DNA of 63,891 nucleotides, counting the filler. It is 16 parts of 16 records of this genome, joined end to end, with 100 filler letters (N's around TTAATTAATTAA, not from the genome) between each part and the next. Parts side by side here need not be neighbours in the genome. Positions count along the whole stretch, not along the records: positions 20,672 to 23,930 come from SRR7504441_16033; 15 more parts are not named here. One strand, 5' to 3'. The notes below the pieces were generated by a model. It searched no databases and had not been told where the DNA came from. It saw nothing but the letters and a program-made list of their open reading frames with translations. This document shows, in pieces, positions 7,205-44,300 of this stretch. How positions within the stretch are numbered: the stretch's first letter is position 1; each line of letters opens with the position of its first letter. A program made the position numbers and the translations under genes.

Positions 7205-10200
7205 TAGCATGAAGTCCACTGAGGCTAGACTGGCCGACGCGAGATCTGGTGCTGGCCAGTGCAGCCAACCTGGTGAGCAGTTGAATCAGAAATCAGCGAC
7301 TGATTGCTTGTGTTTCAACGTGCAGGAAATCCCCGCTCTCAGCCAGGGAACTTTTCTCAGCAGAACCATAGGCAGCAGGAGAATCCGACACAGCGGTGAC
7401 TGTCAGCCTGAATTAGTCCTTGAATCAATTTCCCTCAATCAGCCTTTGCGCCCAAGCTGCCTCAAACTTATGATTGTTGAGAGCCTCGGTCTGGCAGGGA
7501 ATCGTTTGGGGCTTGGCACGGCTCGCAGCAGGGAGCGTCTAATGGCTATGCGGCCCGGTCCAGCTTTAGCCCGGAGCCGCACTACTCACAGCTCAATTCG
7601 CACCAGCAGCCGGAGCCAGTCAGGTCTTGCTTGCTGCCCTCACGCCACCCGAGTCCGATGCAGGGCTCAACCCGAGTATCGCCCAGATTTTACGCGCGGC
7701 TCCAGGCAGAACCCGCAGCCTGTCGAGACTGTGCGAGTGCCGGCTCCGAGCAGGATCGACTGCCAGGTGGTGAGGGCTAGGGTTAGCTTGGAGCAGCACT
7801 GCCTGCGCTGTGAGTCACGGTCAGGCTGATCCACTGCTTGTTGCAGGGGCGGATCACAGGCCCTGCGCCTCGACTGCCTGATGGGGCTGAGAAAGACTTG
7901 GATCTCTGCCTCAAAGAGAACTTTGGGATCCACCGCGGGTTTAGGACGAACCAGCGGGAAGCGATCCGGGCGAGCATGGCTGGGTTTGACACCTTTGTGC
8001 TGATGCCAACAGGAGGCGGGAAGAGCCTGTGCTACCAGCTTCCCGCAGCTCTGTGCTCTGAGCAAGGACTCACTGTTGTGATTTCTCCTCTGCTCTCTCT
8101 GATCAATGATCAAATATCTCAGATCAGAATTAGTAACATCACAGTTGCAGAGCAAATCACTAGTGGCATGGGCGGCGACCATATCAGAGACATCTACAGC
8201 AAAATACATAAGCCAAATTGCAGCGACATTCGATTGCTGTACTTGACCCCTGAAAAGGTAGGCTGCCCGCAGTCCTGCGAGATGAGATGTGTGGTGGCAG
8301 ATCAGCGGGGTTGGCTGCAAGCTAATGGAACATCTGGAGGGCATCCACCGTGAGAACAGGCTCTCACGCTTCGTGATTGACGAAGCCCACTGTGTGAGCC
8401 AATGGGGTCACGACTTTAGACCGGCATATCGCCAGCTGGGAGTGCTCAAGGAGAAATTTCCTGATGTTCCTGTGATGGCTTTGACTGCGACTGCTACTCC
8501 AGAGGTGCGGGACGATATTATCCGGCAGCTTAAGTTGCCACGGGGCCATACTGGTCCTCCCGGGCGATGTCACACCATGTTAATCCAGAGCTTCAACAGA
8601 ACCAACCTCAACTATGAGCTTAGGAAGAAGGAGAAGAAGAAATGCGTGCAGGACATTAAAGCGATGATTGAGCAGCGATACGCCAAAAAGCCTGGCATCA
8701 TTTACTGCCTGTCGACTAATGAGGTGGATGATCTTGCAGCAAAGCTGAACCAAGAGTTCAAGTCGACGACCAAGTTCCAACCATACCACGCCAAGCTGCC
8801 AGTCAAACAGAAAGAGCAAGTGTACAGCGATTGGACTTCGTACAAGACTGATGTCATTGTGGCAACCATTGCATTTGGCATGGGCATAAACAAGCCGGAT
8901 GTTCGGTTTGTGATTCACTACTGCATGCCAAAGACGCTCGAAGGGTATTTCCAGGAGACAGGCCGGGCGGGCAGAGACGGGATGGCTGCGGACTGTATTT
9001 TGTATTATTCATATGCCGACAAAGCAAGGCTCGAAAACATGATCAACAAGTCTGACTATCCATCTTGGCAGACCAAGAAGCACAATAAGGACATGCTCTA
9101 TAGAATGGTCGCTTTCTGTGAGAACGTCACCGACTGCCGCCGGAAGCTTGTCCTGCGACACTTTGGAGAAGACTTTGACGAGAAGCAATGCAATGCGAAG
9201 TGCGACAACTGCAGGAATGAAAATGCTGTTGTCGAGATGGATGTGACAGCCATGGCCCAGCAGACTGTGCAAGCAGTGGACGAAATGAACTCCGCTTCAC
9301 AGCAGCCCTGCACCCTGAAGGATGTGGTTGATGTGGTGTGTGGCTCGACAAGCAAACGGGTCAAGGAGCGGGGCTGGCTGAATGTTTCACATCACGGTTT
9401 GAGCAAGCGCCATCAGCAGATGAACAGGAACAACGTCGAGAGGCTGGTCAAGCAACTGGTGCTAGAAAACTACCTTGAAGAGGTCGGAGAACTCAATGCG
9501 ATGGGGTTCTCCAATACCTTTATCAAGACACACCCCGATGACGGAGTTCGCAGGGCCCAGTCAGCCAGGCACACTCTCAAGATCAGGGGCAACCGACCTG
9601 CCAGACATAACGCCCCTGTGCTGCCAACCTCGGAGACCCAGAATTTAGTCTCACCCATTCGGCCAAGCCCCGCCCCTGCTAGCAAGCGCAAGCAGCCAAG
9701 TGTGCAGCGACAGGCACCGCAGCAGCAAATGCACGCACGACAGCAACAGCATCGGCACGTCTCACCTGCGCCACCCCCGCAACCTGGACCGCAGATATCC
9801 TCACAGGACGAGCAGATGATGGCAGAGCTGCACCAGAGACTGTTTGCCAAACGGGGCGTAATCTGCGATGACATAAACAGCGTTCGTAAACCAGGCGAGG
9901 GCGAAGCGAGCCTCCATTTCTTGTGTACAAACGACGAGCTGAGGAGGATGGCGCGGCATCTTCCCACACAGGAGGGCCACTATAATTTGATTGGGATCAG
10001 GATGGGCAAGGGTCGGATGACCACTTGCGGACAGAAGTTTTTGGACGAGATCAAGAACTTTTTGACAGAACGTGGATTAAACGAGGACCAGGTCCGAGTC
10101 CCCTTTGAGCAAGCTGAATTGAACGAAGCTGCTGTCGAGCTGGACGCATCACAGTGCATGGATCAAGAGGATTCAGACTTTGACGACTTCAATGACAATG

Positions 10201-10241
10201 ATTTTAGTGCCTATTCATACAAGAAGCATAGGGCCCACTAG
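7205..10241 (+). CDS. RecQ-family DNA helicase (BLM/Sgs1-like) with RQC Zn module and HRDC-like C-terminus (5' end uncertain)
   Basis: [21 protein letters not shown] (intron 8258-8300), [62 protein letters not shown]...CDNC. Another intron at 7810-7846. Confidence 0.95.
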
Positions 10242-13899: not shown

Positions 13900-14543
13900 C
13901 CAAGCCACCAATTAACGCGCGAGTCCCGGTTGCTGTCCAGACTGGACCACAGTGCGTTAAAGTCCTTTGACGAGCCTTCCCACACCCCGAGCCGGGTCAG
14001 CCCCTCCTTCATCTCCTTCTTGCTCAGCCAGCCGTTGCTGTCCTTGTCCATTTCCCGGAAAGTGGCCTGAACGTTCTGCTCCATTGCGCAGATCCGCTCG
14101 AGCAGCTCATCCGCCACCGCATACGCACTCCCTCGGCTGGCCGCCGCCCGCCGGTGGGTCCTTACCTGATCAAACTCCAGGATGAACTCGTTGTACTGGA
14201 GCAGGCCGTCGTGCGAGCTGTCGGCCGCGTCGAAGATCACTTTGGCGTGCCTCTTGCTCACGCCGATGTGGTCCAGCCCCGCCTCAAACTCCTTAAGATC
14301 CAGGTTGCCGCTGTTGTCCACCTGCCCGGGACGTCACCGCGCCCAAACCCGGCCGGGCACGTCCAGACGGACGAAGAAGTCGCGCAGGCTGCACCGCTGC
14401 TTGAAAATCTGGTGCTTCACAGCTTTAAGCGAGTCCTGGTACCGGAGCTCGCTGTTCACGCGGGCCAGGTCCGCCCCGAGCTTGCCATTGCACTGGGACA
14501 GCTTGGCCCGCTCCTGGAGCGACGATGATGAAGGCAGAACCAT
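13900..14543 (-). CDS. Multi EF-hand calcium-binding protein, 3' truncated
   Basis: Loops DNSGNLDLKEF, DSSHDGLLQYNEF, DKDSNGWLSKKE and DSNRDSRVN. Short introns near 14322-14360 and 14128-14166. Confidence 0.85.
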
Positions 14544-14892
14544 GATTATTGGCTGTTTCGTGTTGAAACATTTGCACAAACGGCTTTGTACACCGTCGAC
14601 TGCACTGGCACAATCGAGCACGGCACAGGGACTGGCTGGACGGATGGCTCTACTTCGGGAGAGGGGCTGAGGCGTGTATCGTATCGTTAAGCCGGTTCGG
14701 AGACACTGTTGGTCGATCACCGGCTAATGATTACCCGGCGACTGGTCGCTCCGCCGAGGGCTAACAGAGCTTCGAGAGCTTGTAAAACTTTGTAGCAGCT
14801 TTGTAGCCGTTGGAATTATACGTAATTATGGTACACACTGCAAGGCCCGGTCCCGATGCCTACAACAGCGAGCTCGAAGTCTCATAGAACTC

Positions 14893-15561
14893 TCACATGA
14901 GCGCACAGATGCAGCACGCCTCTTGATCGCTCGTCAATGTTTGCGCTCGCACCCGCGGCCCTTTGGTCCGCTCGTCAGCCAGGGGCTTGATCCCCGTCGC
15001 AAACGGGTCAGCCTTCGCGGTCACATCCTGCTCTGCCGCCACCGAAACCGCCTGGCCACCACTTGCCGGCCCGCCACAGCCCGGATTCACCTTAGCGGCC
15101 AGCATGCCGCCCAACGAACACATGCGGGCCGCATAGCAGACTTGTCGGCGCAGCGCCTCCGGAGGCACCAGCCAGCCCAGCCGGGCCCAGGCCTCCCCCG
15201 GCCCCCACCGATTGTACGCCCGCCGGACTGGCCGGCTCCGCCCCGCTTGGCTGCGCTCAGGCTTGGCGGCGCTCTTGCCCGGTGTGCGGCCGGCGCTCGA
15301 GTGCGACCGGTTGGTTCTCTCCTGGAGGGCCTGGGGCGTCCGGCTGCGCTTGGGAACCAGATACCGCCCGCCCTCCCGACGGATGCGAAGCTTGGTGCCC
15401 GAGACCGCGCTCGCCGAGGTGCCGAAGGAGCCCGGAGTCGCCGGCGACGGAGTAATCCCGGCCAGCCAGGCGGCGTTGAGGTGACCCTGCCGGCTGGGCA
15501 GCGGCTGAGCCCGCAGCGGCTGGGCCGGCAGCGCGTGAAACGAGCTAGACGACGTCTCCAT
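14893..15561 (-). CDS. Hypothetical protein ending in a CaaX-like motif (CCICALM*)
   Basis: Open frame from ATG 15561, head-to-head with the 15634 gene. Likely in-frame short introns. No recognisable domain. Confidence 0.4.
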   Translation of the reverse strand: METSSSSFHALPAQPLRAQPLPSRQGHLNAAWLAGITPSPATPGSFGTSASAVSGTKLRIRREGGRYLVPKRSRTPQALQERTNRSHSSAGRTPGKSAAKPERSQAGRSRPVRRAYNRWGPGEAWARLGWLVPPEALRRQVCYAARMCSLGGMLAAKVNPGCGGPASGGQAVSVAAEQDVTAKADPFATGIKPLADERTKGPRVRAQTLTSDQEACCICALM

Positions 15562-15633
15562 GCTCCGACTCCGCCCTCCGCGAAATCAAAAACATCAGAA
15601 TCGTGAATCCTAACCGCCAGGGCCCGCCGTAGT

Positions 15634-17088
15634 ATGGCTAGGCGTTTGTCTTCAGGGGCCGGGTGCAGCCCGAGGAGGGGACTGCTCACGCTGTGGCTCT
15701 GCGCCGCGGCCACCGGATTGACCTCCGAGCACAACGCACCGCCCTGCCGCCCTGAAGCTGTCACTGGCGGCGCCGTGCACAGGTTGAAACTCGGGTGGAA
15801 CGTGGGTTACCTTCCGGACTCGGCCTACTACCGCAAAGCCTTCCGGCGGCTCGGACTCGACGGCCACGTCACGCACACGCGGCTGATGGGCCCGTTCCTG
15901 CACCCGCCGGGCCACGCTGCGGAGCGCCGCGAGGAGTTTGCCGCTGGGCTGGTCCACAACATAAGCGCGGCTGTTGGGGAGCAGTCCACGATCACGGTCA
16001 CGCTCTCCGACTTCCCGTTTGATGTAGCGCCCGATTTGCTCGAAGCTCCGTCTAAGTACCTGTCGCACTGGGTGGGGCAGCCCTCCAACGCCTCCCTGGT
16101 CGACGCCCTGCGCTACACCAATCGGGCCCCGCCTTTCCGCGGCGCTTGGGCTGGAGGCGCCACGCTGGCAGACTACCTCAACGTGCTAAAAGGACTGCGC
16201 AGGCTGCTACCTCCGACCGTCGATTATGAGATTGCGAACGAGCCGAACTCGTTGGGCTACTTTTGGGGCGACGCGGCGGACTTTGAACCGATTGCCGCGG
16301 GGACAATCAGGGCGCTTGGGGACCAATCACTGCCCTTCCCCCCGCCCCGCGTGACATGCTGCGCGTTTGCTACTGAGATGGGCTGCCAGAGCATACCCGC
16401 AGGCTCAGACAATGGCTTCATCAGCTTGGCGCACCGCGTGACTGCCGATCAGCGGCAGGCAGCGCACGGGATGTTCCCGACTGCACTGTCGTGGCACTTC
16501 TACCGCCGAGTAAGCAACGACTCGGATCCACAGCGCTCGACCTACGCCAACGCCACAGCTTTCTACGGCCGTGCGGCGCTGAATGGCTCGGTGCTGTCGG
16601 AGTGGGGACTCTCTACGTTCAACTCGGCCGAAAGCTCGGCCCGGATAAATTCGCCTGAGCTGATGCTGGAGCTAGTGCGAATGCTGGTGTTTGCTGCAGA
16701 TGTTGGGCTGGCGGAGTTCAACGCTCACTGCTTGATGGACAATCCCCACAAAGGCGGCCACGATTGCTTTTTTGATCGATTTGGGGAGCCGCGTGCTGCG
16801 TATCATCACTATGCGCTCATGGCTAGGACGATTGCGGGTGGCTACACAGTGGCAGGCGGGGGATCTGCCCTCACGAACATCAGCGGGGTGAGTAGCGGGC
16901 TCGAGATCATCGCTGCGGCTGGGGACAGTGATGGGCGTTACGCTGCCGACGCATCATTCGTTATGGCAGCTGGCCGAGGGGTGGTGGCCGCATCGAGCGG
17001 CGGTGGGTTCGCAGATGCCGGGCACGTACTAAAGGCCGGCGAGTGGGTCGTCACACAGGCTGAGCCGTACTTGCCGGAGGGCGGTTAG
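15634..17088 (+). CDS. Clan GH-A glycoside hydrolase (GH39-like), secreted
   Basis: Signal-like N-terminus, acid/base motif YEIANEPN, LSWHFY, and nucleophile-like VLSEWG. Intronless. Confidence 0.7.
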   Translation: MARRLSSGAGCSPRRGLLTLWLCAAATGLTSEHNAPPCRPEAVTGGAVHRLKLGWNVGYLPDSAYYRKAFRRLGLDGHVTHTRLMGPFLHPPGHAAERREEFAAGLVHNISAAVGEQSTITVTLSDFPFDVAPDLLEAPSKYLSHWVGQPSNASLVDALRYTNRAPPFRGAWAGGATLADYLNVLKGLRRLLPPTVDYEIANEPNSLGYFWGDAADFEPIAAGTIRALGDQSLPFPPPRVTCCAFATEMGCQSIPAGSDNGFISLAHRVTADQRQAAHGMFPTALSWHFYRRVSNDSDPQRSTYANATAFYGRAALNGSVLSEWGLSTFNSAESSARINSPELMLELVRMLVFAADVGLAEFNAHCLMDNPHKGGHDCFFDRFGEPRAAYHHYALMARTIAGGYTVAGGGSALTNISGVSSGLEIIAAAGDSDGRYAADASFVMAAGRGVVAASSGGGFADAGHVLKAGEWVVTQAEPYLPEGG

Positions 17089-17477
17089 GGTGTATATACC
17101 CGTATACATGACTGTACACGCCTATACTCGTACACGGTCAATAACGATCATACAATTATTAATTCCACCTACCTCTCTTGACCAATGCTCACGGCACCAC
17201 TCACTACTGTAAACCACTCACGGAACCACCGCCCGGCGCACGTGCGCGCCCTCCGCCCTAAGCGCGTTGGCTATGCTCAGCGTTGGCTAACTCTCTACTC
17301 CTGACCAGCCGCAGGTCTCGTAAGAGACACTATGGTAAGCTCGAGAAGAATGCCCAATCACCACGCAAAGCTAGAGCTGATAGCGGGGAAGATCGATGAC
17401 CCCATATCAAGGACTATTAACCAAATCGCATATAAAATCGCATACATGTCCGAGTCGCTTATCCAGTTGTGGCCAAA

Positions 17478-17732
17478 TCAACGAATCAAAGATCTTTCAG
17501 ATTCTACCGCTTCACCGAGAAGCTGCTTTGCGACCTCCTTCTTCCCGCCTGCGAGATTCTTAATAGTGTCTGGCAGTGATAGGAGTCCACTGCAACCCTT
17601 CAGAGCCAGTGTGCTCAGCGCTGTGAGCTCCCCAATTCGATCAGAGAGAGCTGCGAGGGCATGACAGTCAGTTAGATTGAGCGAGACAAGGCCCCTGAGA
17701 TCTCCAATCCTGTCAGGGAGACAAGTCAGCAC
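17478..17732 (-). pseudogene. Short leucine-rich-repeat fragment (24-aa LxxLPxxIGxLxxLxxLxL type)
   Basis: LTCLPDRIGDLRGLVSLNLTDCHALAALSDRIGELTALSTLALKGCSGLLSLPDTIKNL. Only about 2.5 repeats and no clear ATG. Confidence 0.55.
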
Positions 17733-17987
17733 ACCTTCAGCGCTTGCGAGGAAATCACAATTGGAACGAACATGTCGGAACTTCCCTCTGGGCTCTATCT
17801 GGGCTCAGTAACCTGCGGGTGCTTAGAGCATTGACAATGGTCGGGCACACTCAAGCAGTACTTCCACACCTCTCTGCCCTTGGACAGGTTGTCCAGTTGA
17901 AATCAAGCGTAGACGGGCGCTAAACTGTTTGCAGGGATCTCAAGCAGTGTGCGCTGGAGCGAGACTCGAAATAAGCTTCCGATATAG

Positions 17988-18350
17988 ATGTGGATTGAAG
18001 CATTCCGACAGGTTGCTGCTGCTGCTGCTGCTGCTGCTGATTTTGACCAAAATGGCGCATTGACAGGTGATGAGTGTATTGCAATGGCTCAGTTCCAACT
18101 GGGCTGCAGCGATGGGGAAGTGCTCGGGAGGTGGATTGCAGATATGGACGTGAACAGCGATGGCCGCATTGAATGGCATGAGTACATGGACAAACTATTA
18201 GGTCCCGGCTGGGTTGTTGGCGATGAGACAGCTGATGGTCCCAGCAACCTGATCGAGGGTGCTGGCAACCTGATCGGCAACCTGATCGAGGACGCAGGAA
18301 ACCTGATTGACGGTGCTTGCAGTTTGTTGTGGTCCGAAGAACAAGCTTAG
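17988..18350 (+). CDS. Small two-EF-hand protein with poly-Ala tract and C-terminal GNLI repeats
   Basis: DFDQNGALTGDE and DVNSDGRIEWHE loops. NLIEGAGNLIGNLIEDAGNLIDGA repeat. Confidence 0.7.
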   Translation: MWIEAFRQVAAAAAAAADFDQNGALTGDECIAMAQFQLGCSDGEVLGRWIADMDVNSDGRIEWHEYMDKLLGPGWVVGDETADGPSNLIEGAGNLIGNLIEDAGNLIDGACSLLWSEEQA

Positions 18351-18596
18351 AACAAACACATGTGCGCGTATGAATCAATTCCATCCAGTGGTGATTTGCT
18401 CGATCATGAGCCAGTCTATGCTGGCAGAGCTTTGCCAGTGGCTGATTGCATTGGGCACCGAATAAAATGAGAACCGCAAACGCAGCTCAAAGCAATGTGG
18501 GGCCGCTCCTGTGATATGTGATATATATATAATTATGTATCTCTATAGAAGACGCTTGAGCAGCCGTTGTAAAGCTGTTGTAATGCAAAATTGATG

Positions 18597-20030
18597 CTAT
18601 AAAGAGCCAGCCGGCTTTCGGCCTACATGGATGTGTTGATTAACTTGTTCCGGTTCGACTCGCGCGATTCCGTTGGCGTCTAAGTATTCGGCCAGCCGCT
18701 GCCAGTGCGGCTCTTCCCGGTGCAAGATCCCTGCCACAAGCTTAGGTCAGCAAGCCCGGGCTCAGGCACCGAGAGGGTCCCTCCAAGCCTTCAGAGAGGC
18801 GAAACTAGCCTGTACTTGCGCGGTATGTCTCAGGGTCCTCGCGTCGGCCGCCGAGCACAGGCGGTCCTTCATCGCCCACAGCCGCTGACCCACTAGGCTG
18901 GCCCGGCCCGCACCAGCCCGCACCCTCGCCACAGGCTTAGGCAACTCCATCGCATGCAGGCTCATGTACATCCTAGGCAGCTGCCAACCGATCGCGCAGG
19001 CCAGCCGGGCCCGCGGCACCGTGCGGTATTTGGTCACGATTTTGGCCACCCTTGACTTGGACAAGCCGGCCGCTGCCCTTCGGTCAGAGTATCCCAACTG
19101 ATGGCTTTCTCACTGGGCGGCGGGCTCCCTCCGGTCCGGTGCCCTGTGAGAGTGAGCAGCGCGGGGAGCAGCCTGGGCTCGACCCCGTACTCCGCGAGCA
19201 CCTGCCGCCGGGATGGGGCGCCAACGGATCACCGGACACCTGGTCTCTGTGGACTAGCCTCTGGGACCACGGGTCAAACACCGCGATGGGCCCGGACCCG
19301 CTCCTGTTGTCGGAGTTCCGAATCAGCTGGAGCATATCCTGCAGGCCGGATCGGCCGGATCGGTGCCCAAGCCGGACCTTATCCGGAGAGATGACGGTCA
19401 CCCGGCAGCCGTTGAGGCTGGCCATGCCTGTACGGGCTCAGGGAGGCCTCGAGGCTGAGCCACTAGCGTACGAAGCGATCATGTCGCCAGCGTCAGTCTT
19501 GGGCATCCTCAGGCACGCCAGCTGCACCCCCAGGATCCATCCCCGCCCGTCAGCCCCAGGACGGCACCCCTGACCGCTGGAGGGCCTCCGCTACCATGTC
19601 CAGCTGCCCCCCAGTCAGCCCCGCGCCTGCCGCCTGCCCGCACCTGCCGGTACAGCTCTCGCTGCTCAATCATGCGGGCCTGTCCGTTGCTCAGCCTCGG
19701 CCCTGGCTAACGCGCACCGCCGGCTTGTGCGATGGAAGGATCGCTCGACTCCCACCGCCGCCGGGCGGATCCATAAAGCATCCGAGCAGCCTGCCAGCCG
19801 GTCGGCCTGGGCTGAGCAGCGGCTCACTCGGCCGATTGCCGCGCGGGGTGCGCCACGATCCGAAGCAGCTTGCGCACCGCCGGCCCAACCGCCTTGACCG
19901 ACCGACCGTCGGCTGTCGGGCGGTCAGCAGCCGGCCGGGGCCGGTGCACATACCTCCGAGCCGGTCGGGCGCGGTGCTGTGAAAGGCAGCGTGCACCAGC
20001 GGCGGCACATCCAGCAGCAGCTGTCCCCCG
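18597..20030 (-). CDS. Pol I-type 5'-3' exonuclease (PIN/FEN-like) homologue, about 12 short introns, degenerate active site; 5' end unresolved (may reach 20571)
   Basis: Spliced peptide LLLDVPPLVHAAFH...LACLRMPKTDAGDMIASYA...VTVISPDK|DMLQLI (intron 19339-19377)...VLAEYGVEPRLLPALLTLTG...GLSKSRVAKIVTKY...PHWQRLAEYLDANGI follows the motif order of the DNA Pol I 5' nuclease domain. Confidence 0.75.
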
Positions 20031-20671
20031 GCCTCCCACGCGCCCGCGCCCGCCCTGCCCACCGCGTGCCGCCGCGTCATGGGTCGTCTGCCAGCGTCGT
20101 GCTACCGTCCGGTCGTGCCAGTCCAACTGGACTCTCATCATCACTGCGCCACCGGCACTGGGCCAGCCGCAGCTCGGGGCGCGGTAGGCCATGCCGGTGC
20201 GCCGACCAGTGGCACACTCGCCGGAGAGCCGGCTGCCGCTCCGGCCCCGCCGGCGAAGGTCGGCCTTCCCGGGGCCGTCGGTCTTGCCGGCCCCGCCATC
20301 GCTGCGGGCCGCGCCGCAGTCCCGGCCGGTTGTCCGGGGAGACGAGCACCGGGCCGGGCTGGGCCGGGCGCTGAATCTGTGCTGGTCCGAGTGGGCCGAG
20401 GGGCTGGAGGCCCGGTTGTCGATCGAGCCGGGGCGCGGTCCCCCGGGGCTCGAAACCCGGGAGCCGGGAGGGAACTTCCGAAGAAGCCTCGAAACGCTGG
20501 CGGCAATGCGTTTCGAGGAGGCGGCAAAGAGGGTAAAGGCAGAGGCCAGGAGTGCAGGACAGGCGGCAGTGNNNNNNNNNNNNNNNNNNNNNNNNNNNNN
20601 NNNNNNNNNNNNNNNTTAATTAATTAANNNNNNNNNNNNNNNNNNNNNNNNNNNNNNNNNNNNNNNNNNNN

Positions 20672-22817
20672 ACCGCGTTGCAGTGGGCTGTCAGCGCGCC
20701 CAGGGCCTGCGGAAGGCAAGGCCCGGTGCCTGCCGCACACGCCGTCGGCCTCTGGCTGGCTCTGTCGGCAATCACCTGCTCGCGACAGCTCGGCTCTGGC
20801 ATCGGCCAGATGTTCATTGTGCATCATCTGCAACAGAGCTCCCTCACAGGGCCGGTGGGTTCACCTCGGTGTATCTGGGCGGCAGCCCATCCATGTATAC
20901 TTGAATGGCCTTACTGTTCATGCTCTTGCACCGTGCCTGCAGCCCGGCGGTTTGATTCAAGGGCTGCGGCTGAGCGACCTGTGAGACGGCGGCATCTGGA
21001 GGATTAAACTCGGCAAGCACTGCAGCCACCTCCGCTGTGCTCACTGTCTGCTCGTTCTGCGACTTGGTGGTCTTCCGAGAATAGGACTCCCACTCGCAGA
21101 TCAGCCGATCGATCTCGTATGCTGCAGCCTCGTCCTCGCCTTCCCCGAGCCACCCATAGTTCTCGGCCGCTGCCGCCTTGGCCCTGGCCTTCTCGATGAA
21201 GCTATTGACCTTTTTGTCTATTTTGAGCTGCCAGCACCACTGAGCCCGGCCCTGCCCGGACGGCACACCAATAGCTGACCGCCAGGCACCCATCTGCCGT
21301 GGAACAGCCGCATGCACCGGAGCACCCCCGGCGCGTCACTGTAGTGCGCGAATCCAAACGGTTTCTTCTTGCCAGTGCCTGGCTCAATCACTCGCTTCCA
21401 CTGGACCAGGTTCCCACATTGCTGCCCCGACCAGTCAGCCCACACTGCCGCCACAGGCAAGCTGCCTCGAACATCTCCTGCAGCAGGTCATCCGGCAGCC
21501 CGGGAGGGATCTTGCCAACATACACCGTACCTCCACTTGTATTCACATCCTTCTGCATCTTCTCCTTTTGCGCCATCGACTCCGGCGCCTCCCAGTACAC
21601 TATGGTGAGCCGCGCCAGCCCTGTCATCAGCTGCCGGTGCGACGGCAGCCCGTGCTTGGGGCCCTTCTTGGCCCAGTTCTCCAGCGCCACGTAGCCCGTC
21701 TGCTCGATCTCAGCACACACACTTTCGAACATCTGCCGCAGCTGCATCTCCGCCTGCCATCCGTCAGACTGAGCCAGCCCACTGATCTAGCTACCGCCGG
21801 CGGCTCGGGGGAGCGCAGAATGGCCGCCAGTCCGTAGAGCGGGTCGGCTGCGGATCGGCCCACCTGCAGGCAGTTACCATGACTGCTCTAGAGGCCAGCA
21901 ACCCCTATGCAGAGCATGCTCGTGTCGTAGCAGAAGAGCGCCTGCCCGGGCCCGATCTGCCTGCCCTTTGGCCCGCGCTTGTGCAGCCGGTCTTTTGGCA
22001 CGCCGCCCAGAAACGCTTGGTTGTACACTGTCAGCAGCTCCCGTCCCACGGTAGCCACCGCTGGGCAGTCCGGCTCGCACCCGAGCGCCACTACCATCTG
22101 CGGAATGCACCGGCCCGGCTTGAGGCAGATCACGTGCGGCGCCTTGGGCCCCTCGACCAGCGCCTCGAGCGCCGCGCTGTGCCGTGAGCTGCGCACTTGG
22201 AGCGCCACTTGGAGCGCTCGCATCATCCCGCTGCTGAGCCGGGAGCCGGGCCCTCCCGAGTACAGCACAAAGTGGCTCACGCTGAACACAAACGCCAGGT
22301 TCCTATATTCCTCGAGCTCCTGCCGCCCGCCGCTCACCCCGGCCGCCCGCGCCCGCACCCGCGCGGTGAGCCAGCCCCACCGCCGCTCGTCCGGGGAGCC
22401 GGACGCGACCTCGGCGGCCCAGCCGGCCGCCATCACGTTAAAGTCGCCGGGCGAGCTGACGCACAGGTACAGCCTGCAGGTCTCGCTGTCGTAGTAGCCC
22501 TGGACGCCGCACTCGTCCGGTTCCGGGTTGGGCAGGCAGCCGCTGAGCTTGCGCAGCAGCTCGGCCTTGCCGGTGGCTGTCGGCCCGACCAGCCCGATCA
22601 CCGTCACCTGCACCTGCCCGCCGGCCGTAAGGCTGGACCGGCGCGGCGCGGCCGCCTGCTCGTCCAGGCCCTCGGCCTGCCCGGTGCTGGTCTGCTCGCT
22701 CCAATCGGCGTCGGCCAGCCGCGTGAACCCGAACACAAAGTCGAGGTAAGGCTTCTTGAGCTTGAACTCCGGCGCCTGGTCAAAATGGAACCCGGTCACC
22801 CGCAGCGGCCCCTGCAT
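20672..22817 (-). CDS. SMG8: SMG8-like NMD factor with an internal RBM25/Snu71-type RRM, 3' truncated
   Basis: SMG8-like motifs VIGLVG, QGYYDSETCRLYL, LAFVFSVSHFVL, RCIPQMV, and after the RRM, RCKSMNSKAIQVYMDGLPPRYTEMMHNEHLADA...GPCLPQALGALTAHC. Introns 21864-21902, 21754-21794, 21422-21465 (GC-AG) and 21228-21268 keep a single frame. Confidence 0.75.
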
Positions 22818-23349
22818 GAAGAGGCCCGGCTCTGCCGCTGTCAGCTGTTGTTGTTGTCGTGTGATGAGAGGGTTGTGCGCTGCATGTCAGGTGTGTCGAG
22901 TTTGATGGGATAATCACTGTGAAGCGATAGGCACGTGATGACAGGTTATTCACGATCTCTCGCATTGCCCCCTCGTGTTGAGTCAGTCATTGCCAACGTC
23001 ATTGCATCTGCATCCACTACTATCTTCACCTTTGCTAGGAAGGTTGCAGCCTCTCAAACCACAATTCTGGATACGGGCTGGCTCGGCATTGCCAGAAAGT
23101 CCGCCAGAAAGGTATGGAACACTCGATGATCGCAGGTGGATGACGTCGTTGGCTTTAACCTCGCCTGCCGGTTGTAAAATCACCTGTTGGATCTTAGGCA
23201 GCTCTTTCATCATGATCTTTGCACCATCGAATGGCAATTCGGCATCCTGACAGGCGCGCAAAAAGGCTAGGCAGGCGAGTCTGAAGTCCTCGCGAGCGCA
23301 GGCGAAGTCAGACGCGCAGCCACTTGAGGGCGGAGACCAGACTGCGTCT

Positions 23350-23930
23350 TTGAAAGCCCACAAAGCCGATAAAAAGAAGCTGAAAATGGTCCAGGGAGTC
23401 AGCAATGCACAGCAAGCTGTGAAGAGAGCTCTTGGGGTGATGAGCAAGGCTCGTGGACAGATCACGAAGACACGGTCTCAATTAAAGCGATACGAGGTCG
23501 TGCGGAAGCAGTACAAGTCTCACCTGAAGCATTTAAAGGAAATGTGCGTTGGGCATCACCCAGCTGGCCACGCCTCCAACTCGTCCTCCCTACCTCCAAA
23601 AACTATAAGCATCTCCGAGCTTCTGAATCAAACCCAAAGCTTTGCCAATGCCTCGCAAGCTGCTGCAAAGGCAATGCGTAAAGAGGTGGCTATGAAGCAA
23701 ATTGCAAGGAAGCCTACCAGTGTAGTAGATGCCGTTCAGAAGCACCTAGATGCCCAAAAGGAGCTGGAAAAGCCTAATGCCACGAAAAAGACCACTGTGG
23801 ATGCCAAGAAGGCGCTAGCTAAAGCTAAGATATGCAAGGTAGCCTCCGATGGTTTGAAAGAGATATGCAACCATTATGGAAACGAGAGTGGCCAATGCAC
23901 CCAAGGCAGGAAAGCTTATGTCAAACAATG
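23350..23930 (+). CDS. Hypothetical Lys/Ala-rich coiled-coil protein with Cys-containing C-terminal part (partial)
   Basis: Long open frame running into the contig end. Upstream exons probable. No family recognised. Confidence 0.45.
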
Positions 23931-34764: not shown

Positions 34765-35472
34765 AGCCGGAAAGCTTGGCTCCTCAACGGGCTCATCAGC
34801 AACTGGCTCCTCGACAACTGGCTCCTTGGGCTCGACCGGGCTGCCTGTGGAGCCCAGGGTGCGGAAATCGAGCAGCAGGTCAAGCTGCTTCCCAGCCATG
34901 CTGACTTTGTGGTGGCTCCTCACGAACTCGATGAACTCCTTCTTGGTCACGAGTTTGTCGCCGTTGGTGTTCATTTGGCTGAAGAACTGCGGCAACCGCT
35001 CAAGGCTCGGCAGGCCCCGACCGGCACCTCTCGCTCGGCCGCAGGGGTCTTGCTGCTCTCATCGATCCACTTCTGCTCCTCCGCCAGCACCTCCTCGGCC
35101 TTCTTGATCACCTTATCCGCTCTCTCCTTGGCAATCCCTGCGCCGCCAACTCCGGACTCTGCCAGTGCGGACTGCCACCTGGGCCCATCTGGCCCCGCCG
35201 GTCCCGCGCCTCCTCCAGCCGGCGCTTGGCAACGGTCATTCGGGCGGCGTGGTAGTGCCCCCACATGCCCTCGCACATCTCAAAGTTGAGCGCCCCCTTG
35301 ACCATGTTGTCCTGCCGCCCACGCTGGCCCCGCCGCCGCATCTCCGGGCTTGCACCTCATCGTACCGGTCGAAGAGTGGCCCAGTCTGGCTGGGCACCCC
35401 GGTGGCGTCCGGCTCGGACTCAAAAACCTCGACCCACCGGCTCGACATATCCTCGGACGCTGCGCAGCCCAT
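34765..35472 (-). CDS. N-acylated EF-hand protein (multi-exon, 3' truncated)
   Basis: Starts MGCAAS. EF-like segments DNMVKGALNFE and FSQMNTNGDKLVTKKEF. Short introns. Confidence 0.6.
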
Positions 35473-35592
35473 TGTCAAAGTCCAACCCCCTCCCTCTCGC
35501 TCCAACAGACGCTCCCGGTCCAAGCTTTTGCCGTTCACACGAGCTGTCGATCCACGGAGCCGAGCCAGTCACAGTGCTGTTGTGTCACCCCG

Positions 35593-37159
35593 ATGCCCCG
35601 CCCAGCGCTCACCGGTCTGCTGCTGTGCGGCCTTCTCGGCCTTGCCTCGGCTGACGTGCCGGCCGACCTTGTGACCGCGATCCCAGGCTTCAACCAGACG
35701 AGCTTCAAGGTCTACTCCGGCTTTCTGCAGGTGCCCGGCCCGTTCGAGCGCACGGCGTACGACAGCCTCAGGATCCACTACCAGTTCTCGCACGCCCAGG
35801 CCGACCCGATGAGCAAGCCGGTGGTGGCCTGGCACCAGGGCGGCCCGGGCGGCTCGTCGACCCAGGGCGGGTACATAGAGATGGGCTTCTTCCTGGTGGG
35901 CGACCAAATCAAAATCAACCCGCACGCCTGGAACCAGGCGGCAAACATGCTCTACCTAGAGTCCCCGGCCGGCTCCGGCGGCGACAGTGGGTTCTCGACG
36001 TGCCTGAAGGCCGGTAAACCGGTCGGCTGCAAGTGGAACGACCTGTCACAGGCCGAGGCGTACGCACACACGCTCAGCGCGTTCTTCAAGGCTTTCCCGG
36101 AGTTTGCGCAGCACCAGTTTTTCATGGCCGGTGAGAGTTACTTTGGGCAGTACGGCCCGAATATTGCGCACTACATTCTGCAGAACAGCCACAAGTTTGA
36201 GTACTCGCTGAGTGGAATGCTGGTTGGTAACGGCTGTTGGGGAGGGACTAACAGCTCGTTCAACTGCAACGGGCCGCACACGCGGAAGAACGACATTGAC
36301 GCGCTCTGGGGCAAGGGCCTGATGAGCAACAAGCAGTACCAGAATGCGTACCGGGCGTGCGGGTTCAGCGGGGCTGTGAACAAGTCAGCTCACGACTCGA
36401 TCGCGTGCATCGCTGCGCTGGAGCTGGCACATCGAGCTGTTGGGCCGTACAACATCTATGATGTCTATGATAACTGCCCCAAGACCGCAGCTTACCTGGA
36501 GCGCTCGAACAAGGACATGCTCTGGCTGCTGAGCACCGTACGCTCACACATGGACCAGCACCCCTTCGCGACCAGTGCTGAGCGCTCGCGGCTACTAAGC
36601 AACGCCTTGGTGGCTGCTGGGGGCGAGGCTGGGTTCGATTGGAACTGCGGCGGCACCTACCCGCCGGGCAAGGTATCTGACTATTTCAAGCGCAAGGACG
36701 TGCAGCAGGCGCTGCACCTCGGCGAGCCAGGCCTGTCTTCATTTGGCTATGCGACCACCGGCCCGGCTTCGGTGACGCTGTATCCGTACTTGGCTCAGAG
36801 GCTCCGGATGATTATTTACAACGGAGATGCTGACATGTGCGTGCCTTACAACGGCAACGAAGAGTGGATTGAACAGCTCGAAGCCGACGGCGTGCTGGAG
36901 CAAAAGTCTGCCTGGCGGCCTTGGTATTCGATGCGCTCCGTGGCTGGCAAGAGCACCGCTGCCGGCGGTGTCACGACATACTCTGTTACAGGGAGCCGGC
37001 AGGAGCTGACCTTCTTGACTATTCGGCTCGCCGGGCACATGGTGGGTGATCCCATTGACACAATCCTCCTGACCAATGTTTGCCCGGCAGGTCCCGCTGT
37101 TCCGCCCGGCCGCGGCACTGGATTTCTTTGAGGACTTTATCACCAACAAGCCGCAATGA
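35593..37159 (+). CDS. Serine carboxypeptidase, family S10
   Basis: Signal peptide, WHQGGPGGSS, ANMLYLESPAG, AGESYFG, YNGDADMCVP, and AGHM|VP joined across intron 37042-37090. Confidence 0.95.
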
Positions 37160-37386: not shown

Positions 37387-39031
37387 CTAACGGCACGAGT
37401 CGCCCGAGCATGCCATTAGCTTGTGCAACCGGGCTTCCAGCGCGGCCAGCTTGCTCTTAGGAAGGCTCTGGGCCGTATTCTTTAGCTCCCAATAGTCCGT
37501 TGATAGGTCGTAGTACCTGAAACTACATGTCACATTTCTGGCCTCCGCACACGGCAAGCTTACTCGGTGAAGCCCTCGTCGTCCATAAAGCGACAATACT
37601 TCTCACTGGTTGTCCTCACACAGTTGTACGTGTTGTTGAGCATGTCGCCCACATCTGCACACAAAAGCGTCATTTGGCACCAGCACGCCCCTCACAGTGT
37701 GGGAAGGAGCAGCTGGCCACTGGCGGCGCCCCACCCGAGTCTGCATTGTCCTCTGATCCGTGGCAGATGATTGCCATGGTGCTCTTGTTGGCGCTGCCGC
37801 CTCCAAGCCGGTCGCCGTGGTATGAGATGAGGAAGTCGTCTCGCCAATCCGCCTGGAGCCTCGCTCTCTGCTCGGCGGGGGTGTCTGACATGATAAGAGG
37901 CTTGACACTCCGGCCGTCCATGTACTCTGGCACAGCCAGGCCCATCATGTCGATCATAGTAGGCGCCCAGTCAATATTCACAACCATCTGGTCCAGCACC
38001 CGGCCCCGCGCCACCCCAGGCCCTGCCACGGCGAACGGCACTCGAATCTCGTGCTCAAAGTGCTGCCGCTTGTCGTCTGGAGCACAGAACTGCCCAGAGT
38101 GGAAGCCATTATCTGAGCCAAACACAAAGAAAGTGTTGTCCGCGGTGCCAGTCTCCTCGAGTGTGTCGAACACGGCCTCTACCAGGTCGTCTACGCTGCG
38201 GAGCGTCCCCAGCCGGTGCTGGTAAATTGTGTCGGATGAATTGATCACTGAAGCGCTCATCGTAGGCTGGTACCGCACCATCCAATGCTTATCTAGACCG
38301 CGCACATTCCAGTTGGGCGTGCGTGGCGCCCGTCGGTCCGAGTAGCTCTGGGCGTACTGTGGCGCCGGGGTGAAGGGCCCGTGAGCGGCTGGGGTGCCAA
38401 TGTAAACAAAGAAGGGCGTGTGTGGGTAGTCCCTGACAGAGTTGCGGATAAACGCGGTAGAATGGTTCTTCAGAATGTCAGTCAGATAGTCCTCCGAGTA
38501 CACCTCCCCATGGCTCTCGGGCTTGCCGTTGTTCGAGAGCACGTAGTTATAATATTGCGAGTTGCCCTTCAGCCCGAGCCACTCGTCGTACCCGGCCGGG
38601 ATATGCGCCAGCCCTCCGACGTCCGGGCTGCCGTACTGGTTGAGGTACTTGCCACCCATCCATGTGCGGTAGCCGGCCTGCTTGGCCCAGTAGCCCAGCG
38701 AGGCGTTGTGCTCGATCGCCTGCTGCCACCAGAGCGAGTTGCAGCCGTGCGGCGAGTCGTTCTTGAGCGTGCGTGTGTTGTGCTGGTACCGGCCCGAGTT
38801 GATTGTGGCCCGGGACGGGCAGCAGATCGGAGTGGTTACGAACGAGTTGTTGAAGTACACACCTTTTGAGAGCACCCTCTGCTTCAGATGGTCCATCACG
38901 TCGAGCGTGCCCAGCGTGGCGCCCTGGTCGTCCGTCAGCAGGAATACGATGTTCGGCTTGGCGAGCGGCGCCCCGGCAGCGAGGCCAACCAGGCCGCACA
39001 GCAGGAGTAGCACCCTCGACTTGAGCTCCAT
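37387..39031 (-). CDS. Sulfatase, N-acetylglucosamine-6-sulfatase-like (formylglycine-dependent)
   Basis: Signal peptide, PNIVFLLTDDQ, CCPSRATINSG, GKYLNQY, SDNGFHSGQF, DDKRQ. Short introns near the 3' end. Confidence 0.93.
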
Positions 39032-39068
39032 GACGGGTGAGCGTAACGGATTTTGATCTCCAGAACAA

Positions 39069-40757
39069 ATGGCCTCTCGGTCACACCAGCCCAAGCGCCG
39101 CATGGGTGTGCTGGCAGCGCACTGCAGTGCCGCCCCGTTCGGGCTGGCCACCGGCGGCCCACCCACCCGACTCTCACCCCGGTACGATCTGGTGGTGGTC
39201 GGCTTGGGCGCCGCGGGGGCCGCCGGGGCCCTCGAAGCGGCCGGGCGCGGGCTGAAGGTATTGGTGGCCGACCGCTTCTCGGGCGGTGGCGCGACGGTCC
39301 GGTCGGGCGGGGTGATCTACGCGGGCGGCGGCACCGAGCTGCAGGCGGCTTGCGGCGTGGCCGACGACCCGGAGCAGATGGCTCACTACATCCGGCAGGA
39401 GAGCGGGGGCTGCGTGCCCGAGGAGACGGTGCGGCAGTTCTGCCAGGCCAGCGCGGACAACATATCCTGGCTACGCCAGCTGGGTGTGCCGTTCGGGTCG
39501 GCCCTGGCCGAGCGCAAGACCTCGTACCCGACCAGTGATGAGGTTGGCTTATATATGAGTGGCAACGAAGCCTCGGCCCCGTACTCCAGTCGTGCGGTCC
39601 CGGCCGCCCGGGGGCATCGGCCGCAGGGCGAGTACCTGACCGGCAAGGTGCTGTGGGCGCACCTGCTCGAGGCTTTGGAGTCGCACCCCAACGTGCAGTT
39701 AATCCGACACGCACCGTGCGAAGCGCTAGACCAGGATGCGGGCAAGGTGAGAGCGGTAAAGCTCCGGGTGCTCCCAGCGCACGTGGCGGGGCTGCACGAG
39801 CAGTTGTACCAGGCCGGCTGTCAGGCGGCGCTGGTTGACAACAAGACGCGGCAGGCCTGCCAGGCGCTCTGCAGGGAGCTGGAGGTACGGCACGGCCGAG
39901 CTAAGCGGATCGAGTGCGGTGCAGTGCTGATCGCTGCCGGGGGCTACTACTTCAATGACCAAATGGTGGCCGATCACGCCCCGGGCTACGCAGGGCTGAT
40001 GCCGCTGGGCAGTCTAGGGGACGACGGGTCTGGCATTCAGCTTGGACAGGAGGCAGGGGGCGAGACTGGCCAGATGGACCGCTGTTCGGCCTGGAAGTTC
40101 CTCAACCCACCGTACGCGTTCATGAAGGCGATTCTGGTGGGCCCGTGTGGTCGGCGCGTGGCCAACGAGGACTTGTACGGCGCCACGCTCGCCCAAAAGC
40201 TGATCGCGGACCACGCTGGGCGCGGCTGGCTGGTCTGCGACCAGAGCTTGTTCGACGAGGCGGCCGCCGAGGCTGGTACCGGTCCGATGCAGCCGGATCA
40301 GGCGATGCGGACCTACATAAACCTGTACCGCAACCGCAAGACGGCAGAGACGCTCAATGAGCTGGCTCAGCTGTGCTCTATCCCGCCAACAGTCCTCGAG
40401 CAGACTGTGCACTCTTACAACGGTTACTGCCAGGCAGGCGATACGCAGTTCGGCAAGCGGTCCGAGTACCTCCAGCCCGTGAGCCAGCCGCCATACTACG
40501 CGGTGGATGTCTCGCTCAAGGGGAATCCCTGGTGGCCGACGCCCTGCATGAGCCTCGGAGGGCTGCGAGTCGACTCAAACGGTCAAGTGCTCCGGAAAGA
40601 TTCGGACCAGCCGATCGGAGGGCTCTATGCGGCCGGCAGGAGCGCAGTCGGTGTGGCGAGCAACTCTTATGTGAGCGGGCTCAGCTTGGCTGATTGCATC
40701 TTCAGTGGACGCCGAGTAGGCCGCGCTGTGCCAGGAAAGCGCGACTACAAAGAGTAG
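39069..40757 (+). CDS. FAD-dependent 3-ketosteroid-dehydrogenase-like protein (Delta4(5alpha)/TesI-type, FAD_binding_2)
   Basis: DLVVVGLGAAG, GGATVRSGGVIYAGGGT, KTSYP...LYMSGNE...ARGHR, SLGGLRVD, GLYAAGRSAVG, YVSGLSLADC. Intronless. Confidence 0.8.
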   Translation: MASRSHQPKRRMGVLAAHCSAAPFGLATGGPPTRLSPRYDLVVVGLGAAGAAGALEAAGRGLKVLVADRFSGGGATVRSGGVIYAGGGTELQAACGVADDPEQMAHYIRQESGGCVPEETVRQFCQASADNISWLRQLGVPFGSALAERKTSYPTSDEVGLYMSGNEASAPYSSRAVPAARGHRPQGEYLTGKVLWAHLLEALESHPNVQLIRHAPCEALDQDAGKVRAVKLRVLPAHVAGLHEQLYQAGCQAALVDNKTRQACQALCRELEVRHGRAKRIECGAVLIAAGGYYFNDQMVADHAPGYAGLMPLGSLGDDGSGIQLGQEAGGETGQMDRCSAWKFLNPPYAFMKAILVGPCGRRVANEDLYGATLAQKLIADHAGRGWLVCDQSLFDEAAAEAGTGPMQPDQAMRTYINLYRNRKTAETLNELAQLCSIPPTVLEQTVHSYNGYCQAGDTQFGKRSEYLQPVSQPPYYAVDVSLKGNPWWPTPCMSLGGLRVDSNGQVLRKDSDQPIGGLYAAGRSAVGVASNSYVSGLSLADCIFSGRRVGRAVPGKRDYKE

Positions 40758-41368: not shown

Positions 41369-44300
41369 TCACTCCTCTCTCACTCTCTCTTGTAGCACAT
41401 TGAGCGTAATCGGAAACTGCTTCTCAAGCACGTGCGGAGACCTCTTCCCACGCTTAATCTTGCTGCCATCTTCTGACACAAGCGCGAGGCTGTTCTCTTC
41501 CCTGGTATCGCCATCGACATGTTGCAACTCTGCATCCTTAGGGATCTGCAGTACCCAGTTTTGGTTCCTGACGAGCTGCACAAAGCGCACAAACGCCGGC
41601 GACTCCTGCAGTGTTGACAGCGAGCCCAAAATGATCAGTTTGCACTTGGCTCGCGTGAATGCCACATTCACACGTCTCCAGTCTTCCAGCAGTCGGCCCA
41701 CTTTGCGCCCTGAATTGGACCTCACAAGGGACAACAAGACGCAGTCCTTATCTGAGCCCTGATATTTGTCTACAGTTGAGATCTCAAGGCCTGGGCGAGG
41801 CCCCAGACGCTTGCGAATCGCCTTGAGCTGCGACTGATAAGGGGAGATGATCCCTAGTTGCGACATGGAGCACCCAGCTGCGCCAAATGTGTCAATTAAT
41901 TCAGCCAGCACTGCACACTCTGTAGGATTATACAATCCAGAACCGTTGCCTGCCTGTTCGAGTGAGGCTCCGACCTGGTCTGTATCAAGCACCACCACTC
42001 GCCTAGCCGGATCCAGCACCGACAGCAGCCACTTGCGCTGTGCTGTCAACCTGGAGGCTACATTCCTGAGCAGCGGGGGAGAGAGGCACTGCCGTGCCAC
42101 TTGCTGTGAGCCGGCCACCAACTTATGATCGTACACCAGAGTGTTAGACAGCTGCATGATGTCTCCATTCATTCTGTACTGAGTGCACAGCTCGACGGTG
42201 GCCATCGGATGCGCGTCCGACAGCATCTTAAACAAGCTCACATCCAACCCTCGCTGGCGAGCCTCTTGTTTCTGCACTAGTGGCGGGAGCTGGTTGTGAT
42301 CGCCCACCAGCACAAACGTGGAGGCGCAGTGGAGAGGCCCGAGGCAGACGGGCTGAGTTATCTGGCTTGCCTGTGAACCCTCTCAGTGTTGGCCACAGAG
42401 CGGCGTTCACCTCATCCACGATGCAGAAGTCAAACCTTCTGCGGGTGAAGATTGCATGCTCGACAGCAAGGCACGTGCATGCGACCAGCTGGCTGGTTTG
42501 CATCCTTCCGGCCTGCTGCTGGGCACTGGCATCACCGAGCACCAACGGGCGCACCTCTGGATGCACCTACAGACCAAGCGTCACGGCACAAATTGGCATG
42601 CCAGGACACCTTCGCAGGCTCGCCTAGCCTGAGCACATCATGCCGATGCTTAGGAAGCAGCTTGAGCAGAACATTGTCTACTGCGCTGTGCATGTACGAC
42701 ACGAGTAGCACGCTCTTGCCAGCCCTCAGGAGCACAGAGATGATGCATGCGGTGGTAGTCGTCTTGCCTGTGCCCGGCATCCCAAGGATCAGTGCGTAAT
42801 CCTTAGCAGAGAGCACTTTCTCCACCGCGTGTCGCTGATCGCTATTCAATCCACTGTTTCTCCTGATATTGTCGAGCAGTTCCTGTGGAGGAGCTTGAAA
42901 TCTGGGCCGTTGCCTCTCCACTACAAGCTCCCGCAGTCTCACGTTACGTCCTTCTGGCTGGTCATGGAACAGCTTGAGGATATTGCCCTTGCACTGGGCG
43001 AGAGAGGAGCTGAACTCGAGCTTATCGATCCTATAAACAGGCTGGCTGGTTGAGATGTGACGTCGGCATGATCTCACTGGAGCTTCAACCCTTAGCACAA
43101 TCTGCGAGCTGCTGAGAGTCTGGACTCGACCGGTGGCTAGTGCAAACTCTCCAGCCTGTGTGCTCACCACAGCAACTGTGCCGCTAGTCAGTTCTGTCCT
43201 GTCCAGCTGGGCCGACGGATCTAGCGCCTGGAACGTGTACAAGAATCTCCTGGATGGGCCTGGCTGCTCGGTCACGCCGACTATCTCTAGTCGAGAGCAG
43301 CACTTGCCACCACTGGCTCTGGCCTCGCTGCCCATCGTCCAGAGCTCATGCATGCAGGTAACACCGCGGTCCATTTCAATATCGATCGTCTCGATCCAAT
43401 GCATCAGATACTCGGTATGCTCTCTGGTCAAATGTGCAGTATGCAGCTCGAAAGCATTCAGCTCCTCCAGGCCGCTACTAGCAGTGCTGCCACCCTCGGC
43501 CGCCAAGTGATGGATCATGCACGTGCTGATTTGCGGACAGTGCCTGCAGGTGAACACTCTGCCACAGGGCTCTGGAAGAGAACCATGCTGCTTCATCAGC
43601 ACTGCCAGCTCATTGCGGCGCTGCAGCAACCCTCGCACCTCGGCCATCCCAGCGTTAACCCCAGCGGTACTGGTTTCTTGCTCATTCAGATACAGCAACA
43701 GCCCGTACTCGGCCTGGGTGCAGTACCTGCATGAGTAAACCAAGTCAACGTATGGTATGGCCCGAGTGCACTACCTCTCGGCCAGCATCATCGCGTACAG
43801 GATCACTTGGCCCCGGTGCTCCAGGAAGCTCGGCTTGCCTGTCTTCAGCTCAAGTGGCAGCACCACACTCTGCCAGCTGCCGTCCTCTTGCTGGATCTGA
43901 GCCATCAAGGTCGCATCCACCTTGCCTTTGAGCCCAAACGCTGGCGACCAAATGTTCTCCTCAGTGGCTTCGATCGAGGTGATTCGCACTCGCCTGGAGC
44001 CAGCTCCAGACGCACAGGACGACCCTGTCGGCTCGATCACGCACCCGTCTGAGTTATTCAGGTGCTGAGCCTTCCAGGCCAGAATCTGTGGCACTAGACC
44101 CTCGAGATGGCTCCGGGCTTCCTCTGTGGGATGATCGAGTGTGTACAGCCCGAGACGGTGCTGCTCGATCGCGTTGCTGATCAGCTCACGGCAGGCGGCT
44201 TGGTCTGGCTCGGCCTGCTGCAGCATCCCTTCGAATACCTGCGCACGCTCAGCTGCCCTTGCCCGGCCGCTGCACCTGGTGGGCCAATGTGCCCTGCATC

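Follow-up and report, generated by a model that had tools for sequence, protein, structure and literature searches.

A putative SMG8-like gene with an internal RRM on a truncated contig of an uncultured marine eukaryote

Does one gene of a marine eukaryote combine an SMG8-like regulator of nonsense-mediated decay (NMD) with an internal RNA recognition motif (RRM), or have two neighbouring genes been read as one? The question arises from positions 20672–22817 of a window, by which we mean the whole stretch of DNA analysed, of 63,891 nucleotides (nt). The window consists of 16 separate contigs of 3–6 kb each, with joins made up of 44 N, TTAATTAATTAA and another 44 N. Features that seem to cross one of these spacers are not contiguous DNA. 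The contig that carries the locus, on its minus strand, is 3259 nt long (20672–23930, SRR7504441_16033). It ends at position 20672, so that the gene lacks its 3′ part, including a stop codon. The Smg8_Smg9 family provides the SMG1 kinase complex of NMD with its G-domain regulatory subunits. The reading that we favour, with modest confidence, is that the locus is one gene of an uncultured marine eukaryote, its product being a strongly diverged SMG8-type protein of this family with a built-in RRM. The order of the protein would then be a G-like domain, ~100 further residues, the RRM (amino acids 404–481), a 92-residue Ala/Glu-rich linker and a continuation.

Gene model, RRM and G-like domain

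Translation from the ATG at 22817, after removal of six introns of 37–46 nt, yields 632 open codons in seven exons up to the contig edge (20672–22817, minus strand), and each of exons 1–5 starts in phase 0. Exon 1 (21903–22817, amino acids 1–305) carries the G-like domain, begins at the first ATG of its open reading frame (ORF) and has a G+C fraction at third codon positions (GC3) of 0.90. Intron 1 (21864–21902, 39 nt, GT-AG) is in frame and contains a TAG at 21888–21890. Exon 2 (21795–21863, amino acids 306–328, GC3 0.83) is 69 nt long and in phase 0 at both ends, so that exons 1 and 3 join in frame with or without it. It is followed by intron 2 (21754–21794, 41 nt, GT-AG), with a TCTGAC 10 nt before the acceptor. 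Exon 3 (21466–21753, amino acids 329–424) holds 75 non-RRM codons and then strand 1 and helix 1 of the RRM. Intron 3 (21422–21465, 44 nt, GC-AG, with a branch-like GCTGAC motif) lies between profile positions 21 and 22 of the RRM, and intron 4 (21228–21268, 41 nt, GT-AG) falls within its last strand, exon 4 (21269–21421, amino acids 425–475) lying between the two. Exon 5 (20865–21227, amino acids 476–596) contains the end of the RRM, the linker and the motif RCKSMNSKAIQVYMDGLPPRYTE. The remainder consists of intron 5 (20828–20864, 37 nt), exon 6 (20776–20827, amino acids 597–613), intron 6 (20730–20775, 46 nt) and exon 7 (20672–20729, amino acids 614–632), which is cut by the contig end; both of these introns are GT-AG.

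The first four introns had been proposed in a preliminary description of the locus, and all of them are present as written, the third being GC-AG and the others GT-AG. With these four removed, a single frame indeed runs from the ATG at 22817 to 20865. The peptides quoted in that description are also all present, with the qualification that the downstream ones (RYTE-MMHNEH..., GPCL...HC) are reached only through two introns that it had not listed, 20828–20864 and 20730–20775. As a separate observation, intron 1 has a length divisible by three, and its retention would lead, via the in-frame TAG and without a frameshift, to a 309-residue protein of the G domain only.

Seven ORFs of the window with Pfam support served to train a log-odds score of codon usage. 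Exon 1 scored best in frame 0 throughout, and the best frame then changed to 2, to 1 and back to 0 at introns 2, 3 and 4, respectively. These shifts are the ones predicted from the intron lengths. For exons 6 and 7 the score was near zero. The three long ORFs on the opposite strand matched no Pfam family up to E 10.

The RRM (21210–21528, minus strand) extends over exons 3, 4 and 5. It has the RNP2 sequence VYVGKI in exon 3 (21508–21525) and the RNP1 sequence KPFGFAHY in exon 4 (21341–21364), and the aromatic residues of both are intact. The 51 residues of exon 4 scored 15.8 bits against Pfam RRM_1 (PF00076) over positions 22–67 of 70; the score falls short of the 20.7-bit cut-off, as this exon encodes no more than two thirds of the domain. 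Among PDB sequences the best phmmer match of exon 4 was the RRM of CstF-64 (E 9e-4, 22.8 bits, 47 of the 51 residues aligned), with Hrp1, PABP, RBM42, hnRNP A1, TIA-1 and Rna15 lower in the list. Profile positions 1–21 correspond to the 21 residues that start with VYVGKI and end at intron 3, and the LKI after intron 4 makes up the last strand. The RRM is thus complete only after removal of introns 3 and 4, which supports these two junctions. Taken together, the matches to RRM_1 and CstF-64 and the complete canonical domain over three exons bear out the earlier claim that the RRM is real.

Its assignment to the RBM25/Snu71 class is another matter. The WKRV and FGF..Y signature may resemble that of RBM25, a likeness that the searches did not confirm as a class assignment. 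No RBM25 RRM was found among the 34 PDB sequences matched by exon 4 at E ≤ 10, and a word-index homologue search with exon 4 returned seven candidates, none at E ≤ 1 and none a relative of RBM25. Neither the RE/RD-rich region nor the PWI domain of the RBM25 layout is seen in the available 632 residues; as the gene is truncated, a distal PWI domain is possible. When the spliced RRM, the G domain and the C-terminal part were searched by tblastn across the window, only the gene itself was found, and there was no paralogue of the G domain within these 64 kb.

Exon 1 matched the Pfam family Smg8_Smg9 (PF10220) with E 4.7e-5 and 22.4 bits, amino acids 70–244 aligning with profile positions 5–171 of 882. 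For exon 1 no other family fell below E 0.01, and of the five exon translations it was the only one to match Smg8_Smg9. When exon 1 was searched exhaustively by phmmer against 1.84 billion representative proteins, a single one matched at E ≤ 1e-3, with 41% identity. This protein, here called P0001, is a fragment of 119 residues from an ENA contig of 744 nt. It and exon 1 have in common an N-terminal MQG..R and a block around the P-loop, and the sole Pfam match of P0001 is Smg8_Smg9 (E 0.026, 13.3 bits). In a protein-atlas feature search with exon 1 the top two clusters were SMG9, with a score of 0.93 and 171 shared features, and the rows below them were GBP and MMR_HSR1 clusters (0.88–0.91). 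Exon 1 therefore probably belongs to the Smg8_Smg9 family, with a marginal match. The profile and atlas tools resolve the joint family and not SMG8 from SMG9, and the atlas points to SMG9. Of the SMG8-like G-fold region that had been claimed upstream of the RRM, the family-level part holds, by a borderline Smg8_Smg9 match, and the choice of SMG8 over SMG9 does not follow from it.

Downstream of the RRM, the Ala/Glu-rich linker (amino acids 482–573) leads into the motif RCKSMNSKAIQVYMDGLPPRYTE (20865–20933), called SMG8-like in the preliminary description, which continues across the frame-shifting introns 5 and 6 and is short in each exon. A PDB search with exon 5 gave one chance row and no SMG8, the same search with exon 3 gave none, and the protein atlas had no usable match for exon 5. 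The sequence after the linker may resume SMG8. Both flanks of the RRM are presumably collinear with human SMG8, a likeness that would speak for a single gene but is not independent of the preliminary description and does not amount to a test.

One gene or two

Several observations weigh against the reading of a single SMG8-type gene with an RRM. The Smg8_Smg9 score of exon 1 lies 0.1 bit below the gathering score of 22.5 and is confined to the N-terminal profile positions given above. At E ≤ 10, PDB searches with exon 1, and with a profile of exon 1 and P0001, gave neither an SMG8 nor an SMG9 chain, and both lists were headed by ABC/P-loop ATPases, matched via the P-loop. An AlphaFold2 model of exon 1, built on the two-row alignment with P0001, had a mean predicted local distance difference test (pLDDT) score of 35.4 and was unusable. 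No Pfam family was matched up to E 10 by exon 2, exon 3 or exon 5, or by the whole ORFs around them. A strict intron-motif scan of the gene gave 17 candidates vs. 9.2 ± 6.2 in shuffles, which is not discriminating, and picked up only introns 2 and 3, while the motif YTRAY is present in only two of the six introns. The intron calls therefore draw on the open frame, the codon signal and the continuity of the domain, and not on splice signals alone.

The same holds for the search for transcripts and relatives. Words in common with the contig were found in 24 public runs, 20 of them with a small share, and four runs were compared in detail. Five RNA-library contig pieces from these four runs match only positions 23283–23930, with 0–6 differing letters each and no joints, and RNA over the SMG8-like gene was seen in none of the four. 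No orthologous locus was found in metagenome contigs (searched with exons 1 and 3), genome contigs (exon 1) or viral contigs (exon 1), and word-index homologue searches with exon 1, including one at E ≤ 10, returned none. The case thus comes from one truncated contig for which no transcript or orthologue was found, and we regard it as plausible and weakly supported.

The alternative that survives best, which we judge unlikely and nevertheless take seriously, is that of two genes lying one after the other on this strand. Of these, the first would be an intronless gene for a Smg8_Smg9-family protein of ~309 residues, the size of SMG9, ending at the TAG at 21888–21890. The second would encode a separate RRM protein from an ATG at 21747, inside exon 3, with the RRM near its N-terminus as in RBM25-like splicing factors. 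In that case the choice of frame-preserving splice sites would have created the apparent insertion as an artefact, and such a choice is easily found, as GT/GC...AG pairs are common in this GC-rich DNA. The in-frame TAG lies 13 codons past the donor of exon 1 and the ATG two codons into exon 3, and with these two signals two genes fit the DNA equally well. The codon-usage score of exon 2, the segment that would link the two parts, is near 0. GC3 steps down from 0.90 in exon 1 to 0.72–0.82 in exons 3–5, the nearest atlas clusters are SMG9 proteins that, with 317 and 370 residues, match exon 1 by itself in size, and there is no family signal 3′ of the RRM. Counted from the ATG at 21747 the RRM would start at residue 74; in the available part of the source on human RBM25 (PMC3553564) the RRM is placed at residues 87–164, followed by an RE/RD-rich region at 285–664 and a PWI domain at 734–843.

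Against two genes, only ~140 nt would separate the stop codon of the first from the start of the next on the same strand, compared with ~430 nt for the divergent spacer on the other side. Well-formed introns of 39 and 41 nt also flank a 69-nt phase-0 segment exactly where the link is needed. The 300 residues from the ATG at 21747 to the contig end contain no PWI domain and no RE/RD-rich sequence, and the pre-RRM region is not proline-rich, unlike that of human RBM25 as described in the part of PMC3553564 available. Among the tool-based results, a fusion is best supported by exon 3, where 75 strongly coding codons (21529–21753) run intron-free into the RRM. Exon 1 would be joined to exon 3 through introns 1 and 2, and it is on these two introns, as read from the sequence, that the claim of a single mRNA depends.

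Family assignment and possible function

If the locus is one gene, its product would be SMG8-like rather than SMG9-like, because the frame goes far beyond the G domain and the P-loop of P0001 is degenerate. Exon 1 has a P-loop-like GPTATGKA (22563–22586, minus strand), that is GxxxxGK followed by Ala instead of Ser/Thr, and P0001 has GRSSSSKA in its place. According to the available part of the C. elegans study, SMG9 binds nucleotide via the Lys-Ser of its P-loop and SMG8 is without G motifs (Li et al., 2017; PMC5473137). The P-loop of exon 1, in which the Lys is kept and the Ser/Thr is Ala, leans towards SMG8 and is not decisive.

The animal SMG1-SMG8-SMG9 complex offers a structural frame for this comparison, with a C. 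elegans crystal structure of the SMG8-SMG9 core (Li et al., 2017; PMC5473137) and human cryo-electron microscopy models (6SYT, 6Z3R, 7PW4 and 7PW5; PMC8592573). In the parts of these sources available, SMG8 has a G domain followed by a helical stalk and a C-terminal region, with no other part described, and ~45% of the protein falls to the C-terminal half. The stalk is solvent-exposed in animal SMG8, and the flexible C-terminal half contacts the insertion domain of SMG1 and stabilizes autoinhibition (PMC5473137, PMC8592573). SMG8 and SMG9 are described as ancient (2017, PMC5709506), and as far as the portions of the three sources go they act as scaffolds and brakes of SMG1, without an RNA-binding module of their own (PMC5709506, PMC5473137, PMC8592573).

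The predicted protein resembles SMG8 in its N-terminal Smg8_Smg9-family G-like domain, which is followed by more than 300 further residues, comparable to the stalk and C-terminal half. The P-loop, with its Ser/Thr replaced here and fully degenerate in P0001, can likewise be compared with an SMG8 without G motifs. It differs from SMG8 in having the RRM and the 92-residue linker inside the protein; its identity is too low for an SMG8 match in the PDB at E ≤ 10, and the C-terminal half would be off the contig. With SMG9 it shares the Pfam family, the top atlas clusters, the P-loop Lys and the size of exon 1. In contrast, the phosphate-contacting P-loop Ser of SMG9 is Ala here, and SMG9, in the part of PMC5473137 available, is without a stalk or a long C-terminal continuation, whereas 320 more codons follow here if the gene is spliced as proposed.

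On the side of the RRM, a single canonical domain followed by an acidic, helix-prone stretch is reminiscent of RBM25, which is associated with the U1 small nuclear ribonucleoprotein (snRNP), whereas the PWI domain and the RE/RD-rich region of that protein are missing from the available sequence and the nearest solved RRM, that of CstF-64, is not from a U1-associated protein. The RRMs of CstF-64 and Rna15 (PDB 1P1T, 6Q2I and 2X1A) are the best-scoring solved relatives of exon 4, a likeness at the generic RRM level; these proteins act in 3′-end processing and have a hinge and a C-terminal domain, a context unlike that of the protein predicted here. We found no description of an SMG8 with an RRM in the literature searched; supplementary tables (e.g., Causier et al.), which may list protist SMG8 models, were not covered.

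An improbable alternative is that the locus is one gene with no role in NMD, in which a lineage-specific dynamin/GBP-like or other P-loop protein is fused to the RRM and the Smg8_Smg9 match reflects the shared G fold only. This would account for the sub-threshold Pfam score, confined to the first 171 profile positions, for PDB searches that give only P-loop ATPases and for the GBP and MMR_HSR1 clusters in the lower atlas rows. The nearly canonical P-loop GPTATGKA also fits it, given an SMG8 described without G motifs in the part of PMC5473137 cited above. It is opposed by the Pfam scan, in which no GBP, dynamin or MMR_HSR1 model gave a score for exon 1 and Smg8_Smg9 was the only family below E 0.01, by the sole Pfam match of P0001 to the same family and by the SMG9 identity of the top two atlas clusters. 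Finally, we consider an assembly artefact, a decaying pseudogene or a chimeric contig very improbable: the contig is short (3259 nt), the assembly fragmented and only the far end at 23283–23930, with a GC of 0.51 and a GC3 of 0.57, recurs in public runs, yet a misjoin suggested by such data would fall in 22818–23283, outside the gene, whose 632 codons are open with coding signal in the predicted frames and whose RRM retains the RNP1 and RNP2 aromatic residues.

Returning to an SMG8-type protein with a built-in RRM, the domain would be placed in the region after the G-like domain, which in animal SMG8 is the solvent-exposed stalk leading to the C-terminal half. At this site it would most simply tether the SMG1-8-9 complex to RNA. 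Alternatively, it might make the release of the SMG8 brake on UPF1 phosphorylation dependent on RNA binding. We infer each of these steps by analogy with the animal complex. A more specific scenario, which we put forward tentatively, is that in a marine protist lineage without sequenced relatives SMG8 captured an RBM25-like RRM of U1-snRNP type, together with the stretch following it, at the solvent-exposed stalk and thus beside the C-terminal half that keeps SMG1 autoinhibited. The decay kinase would then read RNA directly and would not depend solely on UPF1, UPF2 and the exon-junction complex. What it reads could perhaps be unspliced tiny introns or sequences like 5′ splice sites.

If true, the locus would be a natural experiment on the direct coupling of SMG1 activation to RNA recognition, and it would mean that the stalk region of SMG8 tolerates a whole inserted domain. 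The genes of this organism have introns of 37–48 nt, some of them in frame, a setting in which a close interplay of intron retention with NMD is expected.

The contig and its surroundings

The public runs that have words in common with the contig at 20672–23930 are marine or seawater metagenomes and metatranscriptomes. Besides the SMG8-like gene the contig carries a Lys/Ala-rich ORF on the plus strand (23251–23930), which runs off the contig end and is without a Pfam match. Its GC of 0.51 and GC3 of 0.57 are both far below those of the SMG8-like gene. The two are divergent, with an intergenic spacer of ~430 nt.

The contig that adjoins it in the window (13900–20571) is GC-rich and has long open frames in several frames and on both strands. 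Its longest ORF (15607–17088, plus strand, 493 amino acids) has no Pfam match, and a tblastn search of this contig for a continuation of the truncated gene gave weak rows only and no continuation.

Tiny introns of the class proposed for the SMG8-like gene are also seen on other contigs of the window, at 1864–1900, 14322–14360, 37523–37563, 43727–43774, 51149–51188, 51824–51864 and 62211–62248. They are 37–48 nt in length, run from GT to CAG or TAG between strongly coding flanks and often have a (C/T)TGAC motif 8–15 nt before the acceptor. This shared class of introns suggests a single organism or lineage in which intron sizes vary very little.

Several long ORFs elsewhere in the window were assigned by Pfam and served in training the codon-usage score. 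On the plus strand they encode a RecQ helicase with Helicase_C, RecQ_Zn_bind and RQC domains (8286–10241) and a serine carboxypeptidase S10 (35302–37131), and on the minus strand a sulfatase (37670–39316), a Y-family DNA polymerase (IMS, 55455–57104) and a glycosyl hydrolase 28 (58317–59960).

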